From Clostridia bacterium (GTDB taxonomy: Bacteria; Bacillota; Clostridia; Christensenellales; CAG-1252), in the NCBI GenBank assembly GCA_017455605.1, contig JAFSZO010000072.1, positions 1 to 42,642 of the forward strand: 42,642 nucleotides of DNA, read 5' to 3'. Made by a program: the position numbers and the translations under genes. Below the pieces are notes generated by a model that saw nothing but the letters and a program-made list of their open reading frames with translations, was not told the origin of the DNA and made no database searches. Below are positions 16,915 through 21,525 of the stretch, piece by piece (position 1 is the stretch's first letter; each line of letters opens with the position of its first letter).

Positions 16915-18552
16915 ATGATAAAGTCGATCGACGTATCCACGTTACGTAAAATGTTTCTCGGCGCGGCGCAGAACCTCGCCGTTCACGAAGAAGAGATCAA
17001 CGCCCATAACGTATTTCCCGTCCCCGACGGCGACACCGGCACGAATATGTGCGCCACCGCGACCACGGCGGCGCGCGAGCTCGCGGCGATCCCGGACAGG
17101 GACCTCACTTGGAGCAAGTTCGCTTCCGTATTGACCTCGGCGTCCCTTCGGGGCGCGAGGGGCAACAGCGGCGTGATCCTTTCGCAGATCTTCAAGGGGT
17201 TTGCGGACGTAGTCGCGCCCCTCGACACCCTGATGACCACCAAGCTCCTTTCCAAAGCCTTTTTGGAGGCGGCGCGCGTCGCGTACAGCGCGATGGAGAA
17301 GCCGAAAGAGGGCACCATCCTCACCGTGATCCGCGTCGTGGCGGAGGAGTCGGAGAAGGCGGCGAGCGGCAGGAACGCTTGTTTCGAGACGATGCTCCAG
17401 CGCCTGAACGAGAAGGGACAGCAGATCCTCAACGAGACCCCGAATATGCTCCCCGTCCTCAAGAAGGCGGGCGTCGTGGATGCGGGCGGTATGGGACTCA
17501 TGCGCGTGCTCGAAGGGTTTTCCATGGTCGTGGAGGGCAAGGAGATCCCCACGACGGCGATCAAGGTCGCGGTCGAAGAGAACGACGCGGGATTTGCCGC
17601 GGACGTGCACGATCTCGATGAGATCGAGTTCGCCTATTGCACCGAGTTCTTCGTCAAGAACATTCGTCCCCGCGCGACGGAGGCGGATATCGACAAGCTC
17701 CGCGACAAGCTCTCTCGTCTCGGCAACAGTCTGATCTGTATCGGCGATCTCAAACTCGTCAAGGTGCACGTGCACACGAACAACCCCGGTAGGGCGCTCC
17801 AATACGCCCTCGAGCTCGGTGAGCTCGATCGAGTCAAGATCGAGAATATGCTGGAGCAGAATCGCAAGATCAAGGAGGAGATGGAGCGCAACAAAAAGCC
17901 GATCGGTATGGTCAGCGTATGCGCGGGCAGCGGCATCGCGAAGATCTTTAAGGACCTGACCGTGGACGTCATCGTGCAGGGTGGTCAGACGATGAACCCC
18001 AGCGTGAATGAGATCCTCTCGGCGATCAATCGCGTGAATGCGGACAGCGTGATCGTCCTTCCGAACAACAAGAATATCATTCTCGCCGCGCAGAAGGCGC
18101 AGGAGCTCACGGAGCGCCATTGCGTCGTGCTGGATACCGAGAACGTCGCCGCCGGCATCGCCGCCGCGATCGCCTTCGATCCGCAGGCGGACGTGGATCA
18201 AAACGTGGCGCAGATGACCGAGGCGTATCGCGCGGTGACTTGCGCGCAGGTCACCTCGTCGGTGCGCACGACCAAGATGGACGGTCTCTCCCTCTCGAAG
18301 GGCGACATCATCGGTCTCTCGGAGAAAAAGATCCTCGTCAAAGGCAGCGACCTCAATACCGTCACCGTGGACCTCGTCAAAAAGATGAAGATGGACGAAA
18401 TGGACGTGCTCAACGTCTACGCGGGCGAAGAGGTCTCGGAGGCGACCGTCGCGGATCTGACCGAGCGGCTCGGCGAGGTCTGTCCCGATCTCGAGGTGAT
18501 CCCGTATCGCGGCGATCAACCCCATTCCTTCTATATTTTGGCGGCAGAATAA
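16915..18552 (+). CDS. yloV: DAK2-domain fatty acid kinase catalytic subunit (FakA/YloV)
   Basis: NVFPVPDGDTGTNM, GARGNSGVILSQ, EGTILTV, YCTEF, VKVHVHT, GGQTMNPS. Confidence 0.93.
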   Translation: MIKSIDVSTLRKMFLGAAQNLAVHEEEINAHNVFPVPDGDTGTNMCATATTAARELAAIPDRDLTWSKFASVLTSASLRGARGNSGVILSQIFKGFADVVAPLDTLMTTKLLSKAFLEAARVAYSAMEKPKEGTILTVIRVVAEESEKAASGRNACFETMLQRLNEKGQQILNETPNMLPVLKKAGVVDAGGMGLMRVLEGFSMVVEGKEIPTTAIKVAVEENDAGFAADVHDLDEIEFAYCTEFFVKNIRPRATEADIDKLRDKLSRLGNSLICIGDLKLVKVHVHTNNPGRALQYALELGELDRVKIENMLEQNRKIKEEMERNKKPIGMVSVCAGSGIAKIFKDLTVDVIVQGGQTMNPSVNEILSAINRVNADSVIVLPNNKNIILAAQKAQELTERHCVVLDTENVAAGIAAAIAFDPQADVDQNVAQMTEAYRAVTCAQVTSSVRTTKMDGLSLSKGDIIGLSEKKILVKGSDLNTVTVDLVKKMKMDEMDVLNVYAGEEVSEATVADLTERLGEVCPDLEVIPYRGDQPHSFYILAAE

Positions 18553-18570
18553 CTTTTTTCGTAAAAACGG

Positions 18571-18599
18571 TTGCAAAACCTTTTGCGATTTGATATAGT
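18571..18599 (+). promoter_or_regulatory. Sigma-A promoter of tRNA-Gly
   Basis: TTGCAA-17 nt-TATAGT with extended TG, ending 14 nt upstream of the tRNA. Confidence 0.75.
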
Positions 18600-18613
18600 A
18601 ATAGAGCATTCGC

Positions 18614-18688
18614 GCGGGAGTGGCTCAGTGGTAGAGCGTTGCCTTGCCAAGGCAAATGTCGCGGGTCCGAATCCCGTCTCCCGCTCCA
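18614..18688 (+). tRNA. tRNA-Gly (GCC), CCA encoded
   Basis: Acceptor GCGGGAG/CTCCCGC, anticodon arm TTGCC-TTGCCAA-GGCAA, T-arm GCGGG-TCCGAAT-CCCGT, U73-CCA. Confidence 0.95.
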
Positions 18689-19129
18689 AAATGCTATTGT
18701 TCGACCCGAATAGACGGGATTCACGTTGCGCCAGCAACGGATGCGACAGCATCGGCCCCGCCCGCGGGACCGAACCGGAGCGAAGCGTAGGTCCCCGAGG
18801 TACTCGGGCATCCCGTCTCCCGCTCCACAATGCATTTGTACGGTCCTAACAGACGGGATTCGCGTTGCGTAGCAACGGATGCGACAGCATCGGACCCGCC
18901 CGCGGGACCGAACCGGAGCGAAGCGTAGGTCCCCGAGGCACTCGGGCATCCCGTCTCCCGCTCCAAAATGCTATTGTTCGACCCCAGCAGACGGGATTCG
19001 CGTTGCGTAGCAACGGACGCGTAGCGTCAGACCCGCAGGGGCCGCACCGGAGCAAAGCGTAGGTCCGCGAGATAACGATAATCGGAATGATCTGAAACGC
19101 AAAACTCTCGCGCACACCGTCTCCCGCTC
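18689..19129 (+). repeat. tRNA-linked tandem repeat: three ~139-164 nt structured units, each ending in a copy of the tRNA-Gly 3' end
   Basis: ATCCCGTCTCCCGCTCCA at 18671-18688 (tRNA), 18810-18827 and 18948-18965; CCGTCTCCCGCTC at 19117-19129; units 1 and 2 nearly identical, unit 3 diverged. Confidence 0.93.
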
Positions 19130-19208
19130 TGAGGGCACCGCCCTTTAAACGGTTACAACGGCAGATATGCACCGCGCCTCGCGTGCGATTCATATTATAT
19201 AGCGTTAT

Positions 19209-19283
<75 letters not shown>

Positions 19284-19289
19284 AAAAGA

Positions 19290-19375
19290 GCCGAAGTGGC
19301 GGAATGGTAGACGCAAGGGACTTAAAATCCCTCGGGGGTAACTCCGTGCGGGTTCGAGTCCCGCCTTCGGCACCA
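19290..19375 (+). tRNA. tRNA-Leu (TAA), CCA encoded
   Basis: Acceptor GCCGAAG/CTTCGGC, anticodon loop CTTAAAA, long variable arm, canonical TTCGAGT T-loop. Confidence 0.96.
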
Positions 19376-19379
19376 AATC

Positions 19380-19565
19380 GGGACGGACACGTCGCCCCGC
19401 ACCCGCATTCTCCAGAGAGTTTCGCCTTGGCTGAGAGCGAAGCGAATGCAGCGGAGCGGTACCACCGTTCTCAGTACAATCGTCATAAAGAGTGGGGCTT
19501 TGCGCCCAAATAAGGTGGAACCGCGGCAATCGTCGTCCTTATACGTGATCGTATAAGGGCTTTTT
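19380..19565 (+). promoter_or_regulatory. Thr T-box riboswitch leader with terminator
   Basis: Stem I with AGAGAG bulge and GGCTGAGA loop, ACC specifier (19461-19463), T-box AATAAGGTGGAACCGCG (19509-19525), terminator GTCCTTATACG-TGAT-CGTATAAGGGC-T5; upstream of thrS. Confidence 0.9.
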
Positions 19566-19590
19566 GTTATATAGCTCATAGGAGGAGAAT

Positions 19591-21525
19591 ATGAAGATTT
19601 ATTTGAGAGATTCGGTCAAAGAATACGACGCTCCCGTCACGGTGGAGCAGATCGCCGCCGACATCGGCGAGGGCTTGCATCGTGTCGCGCTCGCGGGCAA
19701 GGTGGACGGCGTTCCCGTCGATCTCGCCTACGTCGTCGATCACGACGCCGAGGTGCAGATCCTGACCTTCAAGGATCAGGAGGGCAAGCACATCTACAAC
19801 CACACCGCCGCGCACGTGATGGCGCAGGCGGTCAAGAGCATCTATCCGACCGCCAAACTCGCGATCGGTCCCGCCATCGACACGGGGTTCTATTACGACA
19901 TCGAATACATCACCCCTCCGACGATGGACGACCTCCAAAAGATCGAGGAGGAGATGCAGCGCATCATCAAGGCGAATCTCCCGATCAGCAGGGAGGTCCT
20001 TCCGCGCAAGAGCGCGAACGCGCTGATGCGCAAGCTCGGCGAGCCGTACAAGCTCGAGATGATCGCTGAGCTCCCGAAGGGCGCGGAGATCAGCTTTTAT
20101 CATCAGGGCGATTTCGTCGATATGTGCGTCGGTCCTCACCTCAAGAGCACGGGCGTCATCAAGGCGGTGAAGCTCACCAGCATCACGGGCGCGTATTGGC
20201 GCGGCGACGCGAAGAATAAGATGCTGACCCGTATCTACGGCGTCGCGTTCGACAAGAAGTCCGCGCTCGACGAGTACCTCGTTCAGCTCGAAGAGGCGAA
20301 GAAGCGCGACCACAACAAGCTCGGTCGCGACCTCGGGATCTTTATGACCTCCGACCCCATCGGGCAGGGCTTGCCCCTCCTGATGCCCAAGGGCGCTAAG
20401 ATCATGCAGACCTTGATCCGTTTCGTTGAAGACGAAGAGGAGCGCCGCGGCTTTATGCTCACCCGCACTCCCGCGATGGCGAAGAACGACCTTTACAAGA
20501 TCTCCGGTCACTGGGATCACTATCGTGACAAGATGTTCGTGATCGGCGACGAGGAGGACGACGACGAGGTGCTCGCGCTCCGTCCGATGACCTGTCCCTT
20601 CCAATATCAGATCTACAAGAACGGCATCAAGAGCTATCGTGACCTCCCGTGTCGCTACGCCGAGACGGCGACTCTGTTCCGCAACGAGGCTTCGGGTGAG
20701 ATGCACGGTCTCATCCGCGTCAGACAGTTCACCCTCTCCGACGGACACATCGTTTGTACCCCCGAGCAGATCGAAGGGGAGTTCAAGCGCTGCTTGGATC
20801 TGTCGTACTATTTCTTGGATTGTCTCGGTCTCCGTGACGACGTGACCTTCCGTTTTAGCAAGTGGGATCCGAAGAATACGGATAAGTACATCGACAACCC
20901 CGCCGAATGGGAACGCACGGAGGGCTTGATGAAAGAGATCCTCGACCATCTCGGTCTCGACTATGTCGAGGCGACGGGCGAGGCGGCTTTCTACGGACCG
21001 AAACTCGACGTACAGGCGAAGAACGTCTACGGCAAAGAGGACACCATCATCACGATCCAGATCGACTTTGCCGCCGGCTCGCGCTTCGAAATGTCCTACG
21101 TTGACGAGAACGGCGTGAAGCAGACCCCTTACGTCATTCACCGCAGCAGTATCGGTTGCTACGAGCGCACCCTCGCGATGCTCATCGAGAAGTACGCCGG
21201 AGCTTTCCCCGCTTGGATCGCTCCCGTGCAGGTCAAGGTCATCAGCTTGACCGACAGGACGGCGGCTGACGTGGAGGAGCTCACGGACAAGCTGTCTCGG
21301 ATGGGCTTCCGCGCCGAGTCCGACACCCGCAGCGAGAAGGTCGGTTACAAGATCCGCGAAGCGCAGCTGGAAAAGGTGCCGTATATGCTCATTCTCGGCG
21401 ATAAGGAGAAGGAGAACGGCACGATCAGCGTGCGCCATCGCAGCGAGGGCGACCTCGGCACGATGACGGTGGACGCCTTCGTCGAGCGTCTCGCCAAGGA
21501 TGTTCGCGATAAAATCCTGAAATGA
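19591..21525 (+). CDS. thrS: Threonine--tRNA ligase
   Basis: TGS and editing domains (HTAAH, DMCVGPH), RDHNKLG, RPMTCP, FRNEASG, AAFYGPKLD, anticodon-binding domain. Confidence 0.98.
   Translation: MKIYLRDSVKEYDAPVTVEQIAADIGEGLHRVALAGKVDGVPVDLAYVVDHDAEVQILTFKDQEGKHIYNHTAAHVMAQAVKSIYPTAKLAIGPAIDTGFYYDIEYITPPTMDDLQKIEEEMQRIIKANLPISREVLPRKSANALMRKLGEPYKLEMIAELPKGAEISFYHQGDFVDMCVGPHLKSTGVIKAVKLTSITGAYWRGDAKNKMLTRIYGVAFDKKSALDEYLVQLEEAKKRDHNKLGRDLGIFMTSDPIGQGLPLLMPKGAKIMQTLIRFVEDEEERRGFMLTRTPAMAKNDLYKISGHWDHYRDKMFVIGDEEDDDEVLALRPMTCPFQYQIYKNGIKSYRDLPCRYAETATLFRNEASGEMHGLIRVRQFTLSDGHIVCTPEQIEGEFKRCLDLSYYFLDCLGLRDDVTFRFSKWDPKNTDKYIDNPAEWERTEGLMKEILDHLGLDYVEATGEAAFYGPKLDVQAKNVYGKEDTIITIQIDFAAGSRFEMSYVDENGVKQTPYVIHRSSIGCYERTLAMLIEKYAGAFPAWIAPVQVKVISLTDRTAADVEELTDKLSRMGFRAESDTRSEKVGYKIREAQLEKVPYMLILGDKEKENGTISVRHRSEGDLGTMTVDAFVERLAKDVRDKILK

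Follow-up and report, generated by a model that had tools for sequence, protein, structure and literature searches.

To our knowledge, the RtT repeats at tyrT of Escherichia coli (Rfam RF00391; gene rttR) have been known since the late 1970s and have no accepted origin or function. The tyrT/tyrV locus of E. coli K-12 harbors 3.1 copies of a 178-nt unit, and across E. coli genomes the copy number varies from 1 to 10, with a median of 3. In the Rfam consensus a 5' segment pairs with the start of the tRNA-derived tail, while the last 9 nt are unpaired. The E. coli units B, C and D carry a 10-nt complement to tail positions 2-11, which encloses 90 nt and leaves an overhang of 8 nt, and this complement was reached by 0, 0 and 1 of 1000 shuffles, respectively. 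The bodies of the E. coli units consist of tRNA-Tyr positions 54-66, a 68-nt insert and positions 67-85. The score of this split T arm was reached by 16, 68 and 39 of 500 shuffles (units A, B and D). All members of RF00391 that were seen in Rfam belong to E. coli. RtT has been reported as an observed RNA (PMC3318445) and is thought to modulate the stringent response, although its mode of action is described as unknown (10.1101/2024.07.17.603846).

An array of the same design was found in a stretch of 42.6 kb from a Clostridia bacterium (the window). On its plus strand, the tRNA-Gly(GCC) gene (18614-18688, 70.3 bits to the Rfam tRNA model) is followed by repeats of its own 3' end. The last 18 nt of the gene (ATCCCGTCTCCCGCTCCA, 18671-18688) recur exactly at 18810 and 18948, where the original prediction had placed them; 0.09 exact matches were expected by chance and three copies were reached in 0 of 100 shuffles. 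A fourth copy at 19114-19131 (ACACCGTCTCCCGCTCTG) is degenerate (14/18) and contains the 13-nt recurrence that had been predicted at 19117, which is exact from 19117 to 19129. These tail copies delimit three units of 139 nt (18689-18827), 138 nt (18828-18965) and 166 nt (18966-19131), all on the plus strand, and Tandem Repeats Finder reported a repeat from 18671 to 19071 with a period of 138, 2.9 copies and 87% matches.

Unit 1 starts with a 23-nt leader, which is followed by the 5' arm of a helix termed P1 (18712-18720), two hairpins (18724-18739 and 18740-18753), a copy of the 5' half of the T arm (18762-18773), a conserved 21-mer (18774-18794), a third hairpin (18795-18807) and the tail (18810-18827). 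Unit 2 is composed of the same parts, with the P1 arm at 18851-18859, the T-arm copy at about 18900-18911, the 21-mer at 18912-18932 and the tail at 18948-18965. Unit 3 is a diverged end unit, in which the P1 arm lies at 18989-18997, a variant of the 21-mer at 19046-19066 and the degenerate tail at 19114-19131. The arm AGACGGGAT is present in all three units, starting at 18712, 18851 and 18989, and complements nucleotides 1-9 of the tail, so that the predicted pairing of an upstream segment with the tail start was recovered. It lies in a longer antisense match to the tRNA gene itself, of 12 nt in units 2 and 3 (reached by 2-3 of 500 shuffles) and of 11 nt in unit 1 (10 of 500). For units 1 and 2, the longest complement between body and tail was the one on tail positions 1-9, which encloses 88-89 nt and leaves an overhang of 9 nt; it was reached by 10 and 13 of 1000 shuffles, while in unit 3 P1 is reduced to 6 bp. 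In line with the original prediction, the hairpin stems CGTTGC/GCAACG, GATGC/GCATC and CCGAG/CTCGG were present, as were the replacement hairpin GACGC/GCGTC of unit 3 and its enlarged loop, in which GCGAGA (19067-19072) and TCTCGC (19106-19111) close 33 nt.

When the array and RtT were compared part by part, the same design emerged. In both systems, a tRNA gene is followed immediately, and in the same orientation, by tandem units, all of which terminate with the last 18-19 nt of that tRNA, from the T loop onward. Base pairing of an upstream arm of 9-10 nt to the first part of the tail closes a domain of hairpins of about 90 nt and leaves the 8-9 nt of the CCA end unpaired. The body repeats the 5' strand of the T stem together with the beginning of the T loop, with an insert before the tail. 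Arginine-rich small ORFs are likewise common to both, a likeness of doubtful meaning. The two differ in the tRNA (tRNA-Tyr in E. coli, tRNA-Gly here) and the phylum, in the length of the insert (68 nt versus 36 nt) and of the leader (56-59 nt versus 23 nt), and in the order of the inner hairpins; moreover, RtT is reported as an observed RNA (PMC3318445), whereas an RNA from the window array is a prediction.

The likeness does not extend to the sequence. The RF00391 covariance model, for which at least 45 bits are needed, gave no match at E values up to 10 on 18000-20000 or 18680-19140, while four E. coli units, used as positive control, matched it at 133-138 bits. Local alignments of window and E. 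coli unit bodies were marginal at most: 6-9 of 300 shuffles equalled the scores of units 1 and 2 against E. coli unit A, and none of the remaining 10 same-strand pairs was significant. Homology based on the common words GGAGCGAAGCG and the common stem CGTTGC/GCAACG was rejected, as these were within or near chance by shuffles. A MAFFT alignment with E. coli RtT was uninformative, and blastn of the array against 5,426 E. coli genomes gave no match. Since the sequence similarity is not significant and the RtT model found no match, the array is not a member of the RtT family, and it matches RtT in design only. Given this weak likeness in sequence, the common design may reflect convergence or be a by-product of any duplication of a tRNA 3' end. 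What was known is the RtT design in E. coli; new is the same design on tRNA-Gly in Clostridia. The recurrence of one design on a different tRNA without sequence similarity suggests that such units have either their mode of formation or their use in common, and it opens the question of the origin and function of RtT to comparative genomics.

We consider it roughly an even chance that the array is an RtT-type tRNA-trailer element on tRNA-Gly(GCC), present in three tandem copies. The units would then derive from the 3' part of the tRNA gene, remodelled and without its function, and be laid out as the T-stem 5' strand and T-loop start (10/12 nt), a 36-nt insert and the exact last 18 nt of the tRNA, while further upstream 9-12 nt of the same tRNA segment are repeated in inverted orientation. 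Because of this inverted copy, a transcript or single-stranded DNA could form P1, with about 89 nt of hairpins inside the helix and CCCGCUCCA left unpaired.

The layout bears on a second explanation, in which the repeats are the scar of a site-specific integration. An element would have entered the T loop of tRNA-Gly, restored the 3' end of the gene and displaced the old one, and would since have been mostly lost; a cargo-free, att-bounded remnant, comparable to a cis-mobilizable element, would then have been duplicated in tandem, the hairpins and the 21-mer being remains of recombinase-binding arms and any RNA incidental. A direct repeat of the tRNA 3' end indeed stands at both ends, as in integrative elements, and the repeat runs from the T loop to CCA, as in islands with sites in the T-stem region (PMC4383910). 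The tandem islands and cis-mobilizable elements described, for example, at ssrA of Dehalococcoides have further features in common with the array: repeats of the 3' end from the T loop, several copies downstream in a row, a conserved motif just upstream of each repeat and, in some cases, no integrase (PMC3146451, PMC4383910). They are, however, kilobases long, contain genes and mostly an integrase, while a window unit comprises 139 nt and no gene. Displaced fragments are often degenerate, and so is the last copy in the window. A Pfam scan of the 38 large ORFs of the 42.6-kb window revealed no integrase, transposase or cargo, in agreement with the predicted lack of a nearby integrase, and the array shows no compositional break (GC 0.595 versus 0.585 overall).

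The split T arm is also relevant in this respect. The unit bodies carry CCGCGGGACCGA, which corresponds to tRNA-Gly positions 46-57 (10/12), a stretch comprising the 5' strand of the T stem and the first part of the T loop. It is followed by the 36-nt insert, which holds the best-conserved 21-mer and a small hairpin, and then by positions 58-75 exactly. The colinear score was reached by 6, 18 and 78 of 500 shuffles for units 1, 2 and 3, corresponding to p values of about 0.01-0.15 per unit. In contrast to the islands, in which similarity to the tRNA should stop at the crossover of an att site, it appears to resume upstream of the insert, and the sharp 18-nt edge looks like the edge of a T-loop insert rather than the end of homology. 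In addition, the T-stem-like arm lies about 89 nt from the tail, whereas the core half-sites of a recombinase would be a few bases apart. A circle of 139 bp is too small for a plausible recombination substrate, and we know of no case in which the E. coli RtT design has been tied to an integrase. An integration scar is therefore regarded as unlikely. For programs that use displaced tRNA fragments as ends of islands, arrays of this kind would give false or confusing calls.

In the reading as RtT-type copies, copy number would change by unequal crossing over or gene conversion between the 18-nt repeats. The leader had been predicted to be the most variable part of the units, which held true for units 1 and 2 (15/23 identical, compared with about 96% in the remainder) but not for units 1 and 3, where the leader (20/23) is no worse than the remainder. 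This mosaic of leader and body fits exchange between units. Slippage duplication without structure or mechanism, or an assembly artefact, would be compatible with an array of three units only and with the weak structure statistics described below. Slippage alone would not be expected to produce the complement between arm and tail, the split T arm or a homologous block elsewhere, and an artefact is hard to reconcile with the array because the units differ (5/116 positions plus 8/23 in the leader between units 1 and 2, about 15% and a 32-column insert for unit 3), unlike those of a collapsed or inflated repeat. Both are considered highly improbable.

The surroundings of the array suggest that it is expressed. 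Upstream of tRNA-Gly, a promoter-like site (TTGCAA, 17-nt spacer, TATAGT with a TG) was identified at 18571-18599, the sole one on the plus strand within 18300-19800. As predicted, no terminator-like site separates it from the array; none was detected from the promoter-like site to 19172, and a weak one follows at 19173-19187. Downstream, tRNA-Cys(GCA) (19209-19283) and tRNA-Leu(UAA) (19290-19375) are encoded on the same strand and probably share a transcript with the array, followed by a T-box-like leader (19375-19543, 50.1 bits at a family cut-off of 93), a terminator-like hairpin (19535-19560) and thrS (19591-21525), all on the plus strand. Because it lies between the tRNA promoter and two tRNA genes with no terminator in between, the array is most likely transcribed together with the flanking tRNAs. 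The enzymes that trim tRNA ends would be expected to cut out CCA-ended RNAs of about 139 nt.

Such RNAs might act in trans, as partial tRNA mimics under selection that serve as decoys or sponges for readers of tRNA 3' ends or in a starvation response as proposed for RtT. This would agree with the recurrence of the design in two distant phyla on different tRNAs, and with the proposed role of RtT in the stringent response (10.1101/2024.07.17.603846). Unit 3 differs from the others by two compensatory changes (U-A to C-G and C-G to G-C), both of which had been noted in the original prediction, and by an additional wobble change (A-U to G-U). The leuZ 3' external transcribed spacer is a single sequence that does not reproduce a tRNA 3' end. 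Like the proposed RNAs, it is a non-tRNA piece of a tRNA operon transcript that persists after processing, and it acts as a sponge RNA (10.1101/2021.04.25.441314), whereas no base-pairing target is proposed for the array.

The folding analysis gave a mixed picture. In unconstrained minimum-energy folds, a P1-type helix closed a multibranch loop in window unit 1, in E. coli units A and B and in the units of two related loci (L001 and L003, see below). The RNAalifold consensus preferred a different fold, with GGAGCG of the 21-mer as the partner of the tail, and unit 2 including its leader also folds with the tail on GGAGCG; the originally predicted fold was thus rejected as a consensus. Folding energy showed no strand preference (z -3.5 on the plus and -3.7 on the minus strand). 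A mimic of the acceptor stem, formed by GCGGGA in the body and UCCCGC in the tail, was dismissed, as this pairing occurs in units 1 and 2 and is lost in unit 3. Covariation within the array was weak: two of 30 pairs changed on both sides, a number also reached by 60 of 500 shuffles. The end unit appears to be decaying (tail 14/18, P1 of 6 bp), and its fold is no better than that of shuffles (z -0.9). An anticodon arm is missing from the units, and only the three real tRNAs were called by ARAGORN and the Rfam tRNA model, so that a tRNA gene or pseudogene was excluded and the term tRNA mimic, used in the original prediction, proved too strong. Of the predicted cassette of co-transcribed, structured RNAs ending in CCA, the design agrees point by point with RtT, whose locus tyrT the prediction had mentioned simply as background, but the selection for structure was not borne out, and we regard a selected trans-acting RNA as quite unlikely.

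Relatives of the units were identified by scanning a genome collection of 596 Gb with a 20-mer, which yielded nine loci in six independent groups. Two of them, L001 (1888-2125) and L003 (1133-1378), reside in one rumen Clostridia genome; their identity is 84% across 246 nt and 93% within a core of 144 nt. Both contain the 21-mer unchanged, while the sequence that precedes it cannot be aligned with the window, a pattern that would suit a selected RNA. The block after the 21-mer matches the tail region of the window at the same offset, with a score reached by 1-2 of 2000 shuffles for L003 and 40-68 of 2000 for L001. In this other genome, the homologous block is part of units whose tails are those of tRNA-Val(GAC) and of another tRNA, which points to a spread between tRNA genes. 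Both units retain an internal, degenerate tRNA-Gly-like tail, as if they had moved from a tRNA-Gly site. Spread between tRNA genes, with related units elsewhere carrying other tRNA tails, would also form part of the RtT-type reading. Both tRNAs are followed by a strong terminator hairpin after CCA, which is why the units are probably not co-transcribed with their tRNA, a point against both the RtT-type reading and a trans-acting RNA. Two features would rather suit an integration scar: the conserved block spans both sides of the tail, as an attachment site would, and the L003 unit is the last of three short cassettes ending in TCTCCACCA beside a low-GC gene. The GC content of the locus is 0.42 for L003 and 0.51 for L001.

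These loci also bear on the possibility of an active, non-autonomous mobile element that targets tRNA 3' ends and is mobilized in trans, either by a recombinase or by a reverse transcriptase using tRNA 3' ends, with the tail and the arm reset each time. Besides the degenerate inner tail, such movement would fit the finding that in L001 the end of tRNA-Val(GAC) recurs exactly, over 22 nt, at a distance of 228 nt downstream of the gene, and likewise the coordinated difference of tail and pairing arm in two otherwise similar units (AAGGGAC with GTCCCTT in L001, AGGGGG with CCCCCT in L003). The 18-nt tail (positions 59-76) is the stretch of the primer tRNA that is copied by retroviruses, which serves as a lead only. 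However, the L001 complement was reached by 71 of 1000 shuffles and that of L003 comprises 6 nt, the scan gave two such loci only in one other genome, and the array units are too different for recent insertions of one master copy. Furthermore, no mobilising enzyme is known and none was found in the window, and blastn of 18689-19140 against plasmid and phage collections gave no match. As a point against the RtT-type reading, the split T arm is absent in L001 (score reached by 183 of 500 shuffles). The original prediction of a tRNA-targeting mini-element is partly supported, by the homologous block under other tRNA tails but not by a recombinase or by the 18-nt edge, which resembles the edge of an insert; we judge an active element decidedly unlikely.

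A broader proposal, which we consider very unlikely, is that RtT-type units form one widespread class of tRNA-3'-end-bounded elements that move between tRNA genes across phyla, a bacterial counterpart of SINEs, by means of an enzyme acting at T-loop position 58/59. This enzyme might be a recombinase that reads the folded single strand, with arm and tail rebuilding the target duplex. Alternatively, it might be a reverse transcriptase that employs the final 18 nt of a tRNA or copies them, a part of the proposal that we find just as doubtful. Equally speculative, the tail and the complementary arm would be rewritten at each tRNA, and the 21-mer would be the recognition site of the enzyme. Eukaryotic tRNA-derived SINEs, which serve as an analogy only, are short non-coding repeats that arose from tRNA genes and are spread by enzymes encoded elsewhere. 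They keep the 5' promoter part of the tRNA and not its 3' end, move by reverse transcription and are dispersed, not targeted to tRNAs. We know of no SINE-like system in bacteria.

Other known kinds of repeats were compared as well. No known RNA family matched the array in Rfam at E values up to 10. The boxes of integron attC sites have the consensus GTTRRRY and RYYYAAC. An attC array was rejected, as the unit boundaries GGGC/ATCCCG and CCA/AAATGC lack such boxes and the window contains no integrase. RNA repeats of a type III toxin-antitoxin system were rejected too, as the array precedes tRNA-Cys, tRNA-Leu and thrS and not a terminator and toxin gene. With respect to MITEs, inverted arms of 9 nt are present; the arm sequence follows the local tRNA and is not constant family-wide, and the flanking repeat is 18-22 nt long. 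Ten ORFs of at least 40 aa overlap the array. Searches of a protein collection with three of them (on the minus strand one of 81 aa and residues 133-227 of one of 227 aa, on the plus strand one of 43 aa) gave no match and hence revealed no related arrays by way of spurious ORFs. A string search of the literature for a 15-mer found no occurrence, and literature searches for 178-bp tyrT repeats and for tRNA operon repeats found nothing.

For the 20-mer used in the genome scan, chance alone would give about 2 matches in a collection of 596 Gb if the base composition were even, and a larger number in GC-rich genomes. The matches in Rhodohalobacter, Hyphomonas and Verrucomicrobiota look like chance, and the 20-mer was rejected as a cross-phylum motif. 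Rfam searches at E values up to 10 returned nothing at the common motif in the nine other loci. With no tRNA nearby in either case, a Gemmatimonadetes trio has 24 nt in common with L001 and L003, and a Planctomycetota locus has 25 nt in common with units 1 and 2.

To characterize the repeats behind tRNA-Gly(GCC), three units on the + strand were compared (18689-18827, 18828-18965 and 18966-19131; 139, 138 and 166 nt). Exact copies of the final 18 nt of tRNA-Gly (18671-18688, the tail) were found at 18810 and 18948, as had been originally predicted, along with a degenerate copy matching at 14 of 18 positions at 19114-19131. Three exact 18-nt copies were reached in none of 100 shuffles (0.09 matches expected by chance), and Tandem Repeats Finder described the array as 2.9 copies with a period of 138 and 87% matches. 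All units contain AGACGGGAT, which is exactly complementary to tail positions 1-9, and the complementarity extends to 12 nt of the tRNA-Gly gene itself in units 2 and 3. The individual hairpins listed in the original prediction and both compensatory changes that it described for unit 3 were likewise recovered, and unit 3 carries a 32-column insert within the loop of the last hairpin. An arginine-rich ORF of 43 aa, counted from the ATG, was seen in each of units 1 (18741-18872) and 2 (18879-19010). Unit 3 has lost its start codon, and the protein collection yielded no relatives. The RtT unit of the E. coli tyrT/tyrV operon also holds an ORF, annotated as 'protamine-like' tpr; the arginine-rich ORF probably arises just from the high GC content of the sequence.

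The surrounding window is a housekeeping chromosomal stretch with a GC content of ~59% and genes mostly on the + strand. Upstream of the tRNAs lie uvrD/pcrA, ligA, priA, def, fmt, rsmB, rlmN and rpe, followed by a FakA/DAK2 gene ending at 18552, and thrS, infC, rplT, ruvCAB, queA, tgt, secDF, recJ and pnp lie downstream. Between fakA and thrS, a promoter-like site (18571-18599) precedes tRNA-Gly (18614-18688) and the array, which is followed by tRNA-Cys (19209-19283), tRNA-Leu (19290-19375) and a T-box-like leader (19375-19543; 50.1 bits, under the family cut-off of 93). The first base of this leader (19375-19560 region) is the last base of tRNA-Leu, and a terminator-like hairpin closes it immediately 5' of thrS. 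As a separate promoter would not fit, transcription of thrS may start at the tRNA promoter that precedes the array.

The array had been proposed to fold into units in which a closing helix (P1), formed by an upstream arm and the start of the tail, encloses several hairpins. This fold was obtained as the minimum-energy structure of units 1 and 2 without their leader (the first 23 nt), with P1 around several hairpins and the CCCGCUCCA end free (z-scores -3.3 and -1.8, respectively), whereas the RNAalifold consensus differed and paired the tail with GGAGCG of the 21-mer, the best-conserved internal segment. In the three-unit alignment 97.8% of cells are able to pair, and both-sided changes occur in just 2 of 30 pairs, a value equalled by 60 of 500 shuffles. 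Because covariation is weak, RNAalifold offers an alternative and folding does not distinguish the two strands (z -3.5 and -3.7), the array by itself is no proof of a selected RNA fold.

Rfam returned no family in the array at E values up to 10, the plasmid and phage collections gave no match, and three ORFs crossing the array had no relatives in the protein collection. The array was compared with the RtT repeats (Rfam RF00391, gene rttR) at the tyrT/tyrV locus of E. coli K-12; outside E. coli, the analysis covered five related units. This locus has 3.1 copies of a 178-nt unit, each closed by the last 19 nt of tRNA-Tyr, and the Rfam model scored four K-12 units at 133-138 bits. In the Rfam consensus structure a 5' segment pairs with the start of the tail and the final 9 nt are unpaired, which is the same fold as that drawn for the window units. 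The longest complement between arm and tail is 9 nt in window units 1 and 2 (tail positions 1-9, overhang 9 nt, 88-89 nt enclosed; reached by 10-13 of 1000 shuffles) and 10 nt in E. coli units B-D (tail positions 2-11, overhang 8 nt, 90 nt enclosed; 0-1 of 1000), so that the two geometries are close. Unconstrained folding gave a multibranch loop closed by the arm-tail helix for the first window unit, for units A and B of E. coli and for those of two further loci, L001 and L003.

A second likeness concerns the T arm. In the body of the window unit, CCGCGGGACCGA matches tRNA-Gly positions 46-57 at 10 of 12 sites and corresponds to the 5' strand of the T stem plus the start of the T loop; it is followed by a 36-nt insert (21-mer and hairpin) and then by positions 58-75 exactly. 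RtT bodies comprise tRNA-Tyr positions 54-66, an insert of 68 nt and positions 67-85, so the sequence taken from the tRNA is broken at a single T-loop point with no loss here as well as in E. coli. The colinear scores are modest: 6, 18 and 78 of 500 shuffles reached those of window units 1-3, 16, 68 and 39 those of E. coli units A, B and D, and 183 that of L001. If the split is real, the sharp boundary at 18 nt marks where an insert begins and not where homology stops, which fits a simple integrase scar poorly. That the array was left by integration at tRNA-Gly has good precedents: tandem islands, as well as 3'-end repeats that begin within the T loop, are described in two papers (PMC4383910, PMC3146451). 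Yet no recombinase, integrase or transposase was found among the window's 38 ORFs by Pfam scan, and integration leaves the distant arm and the apparently split T arm unexplained; we regard this origin as unlikely.

Taken together, the array is most likely a trailer element of the RtT type that arose from the 3' part of tRNA-Gly. Its transcription and processing, like any function, are inferred. No terminator separates the array from tRNA-Cys and tRNA-Leu in the tRNA operon, and it is therefore probably co-transcribed with both; the transcript would probably be trimmed at every CCA copy. Copies may be gained and lost through exchange between the 18-nt repeats, which fits the mosaic likeness of the units (leaders 1 and 3 identical at 20/23 positions, bodies 1 and 2 96% alike). 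Words common to the window and RtT were rejected as a sign of common descent, since local alignments of unit bodies were at best marginal (two pairs reached by 6-9 of 300 shuffles; the remaining 10 same-strand pairs were not significant) and a blastn search of 5,426 E. coli genomes gave no match. The RtT covariance model did not match the window either; we place the array outside RF00391 and regard it as an element that works like RtT. RtT itself was found in 4,738 of the 5,426 genomes at 1-10 places each (median 3), with 18 of 13,297 places on plasmids. A preprint attributes to RtT a presumed modulating role in the stringent response, by an unknown mode of action (10.1101/2024.07.17.603846), and a passage of a comparative paper describes rttR merely as one of the tyrT repeat units (PMC3318445).

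To find relatives, the genome collection was scanned with the best-conserved internal 20-mer. Nine loci were returned, with the source genome and its close relatives absent; about two matches are expected by chance (our own arithmetic, even base composition), and most of the nine are probably chance matches. L001 and L003, from the same rumen Clostridia genome, are not. In L001, a terminator hairpin lies 3' of tRNA-Val(GAC) (1819-1894), and after it comes a unit of ~230 nt that ends with a 22-nt exact copy of the tRNA-Val end. The L003 unit, 84% identical to it over 246 nt, has another tRNA-like tail, CCCCCCCTCATCTCCACCA, and is the third and final short cassette ending in TCTCCACCA; a low-GC gene adjoins the cassettes. 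Both units contain the window 21-mer exactly and, at a matching offset 3' of it, a degenerate tRNA-Gly tail (for L003, 1-2 of 2000 shuffles attained the block score, and for L001, 40-68 of 2000), while no similarity was found in the 70 nt 5' of the 21-mer. This indicates that a block has travelled which, judged from these alignments, comprises the 21-mer together with a small hairpin and the tRNA-Gly tail; it now lies within units that have tails of other tRNAs at their ends. L001 and L003 are the two loci that speak for the array unit being an active mobile element, which we consider improbable.

Between two TCTCCACCA copies, L003 carries very short GC hairpins in series (860-1140), spaced by AT-rich words (TTATCAT, for example) that occur in either orientation, and a similar stretch lies 3' of the L001 unit (2160-2260); these runs could be repeats of an integrative element to which proteins bind. 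L001 also has a 46-nt duplication (610-655 and 778-823, 96% identical) spanning the first 22 nt of tRNA-Pro(GGG) on the minus strand plus its upstream sequence. Further matches were obtained in L005 (1692-1716 and 951-975), L006 (1996-2020), and L008 and L009 (around 2001-2021). Three Gemmatimonadetes loci have a common repeat of at least ~45 nt, 24 nt of which are identical to L001 and L003, and one of them is adjoined by a putative AbrB/MazE-like gene, read from translation; a Planctomycetota locus has 25 nt in common with the first two window units. The Gemmatimonadetes and Planctomycetota loci yielded no tRNA, and their matches are likely chance.

The regions 5' of tRNA-Gly (18553-18613) and tRNA-Cys (19132-19208) have the blocks AAACGGTT(G/A)CAA and ATATAG in common. 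In the copy upstream of tRNA-Cys, where no + strand promoter-like site was called, a gap of ~22 nt lies between the blocks, which would leave too long a distance between the -35 and -10 parts. In their T loops, tRNA-Gly (18660-18670) and tRNA-Cys (19255-19265) read TCCGA, which puts C where pseudouridine 55 usually stands, and TTCGA is found in the T loops of most tRNAs, including the window tRNA-Leu and the tRNAs of L001.
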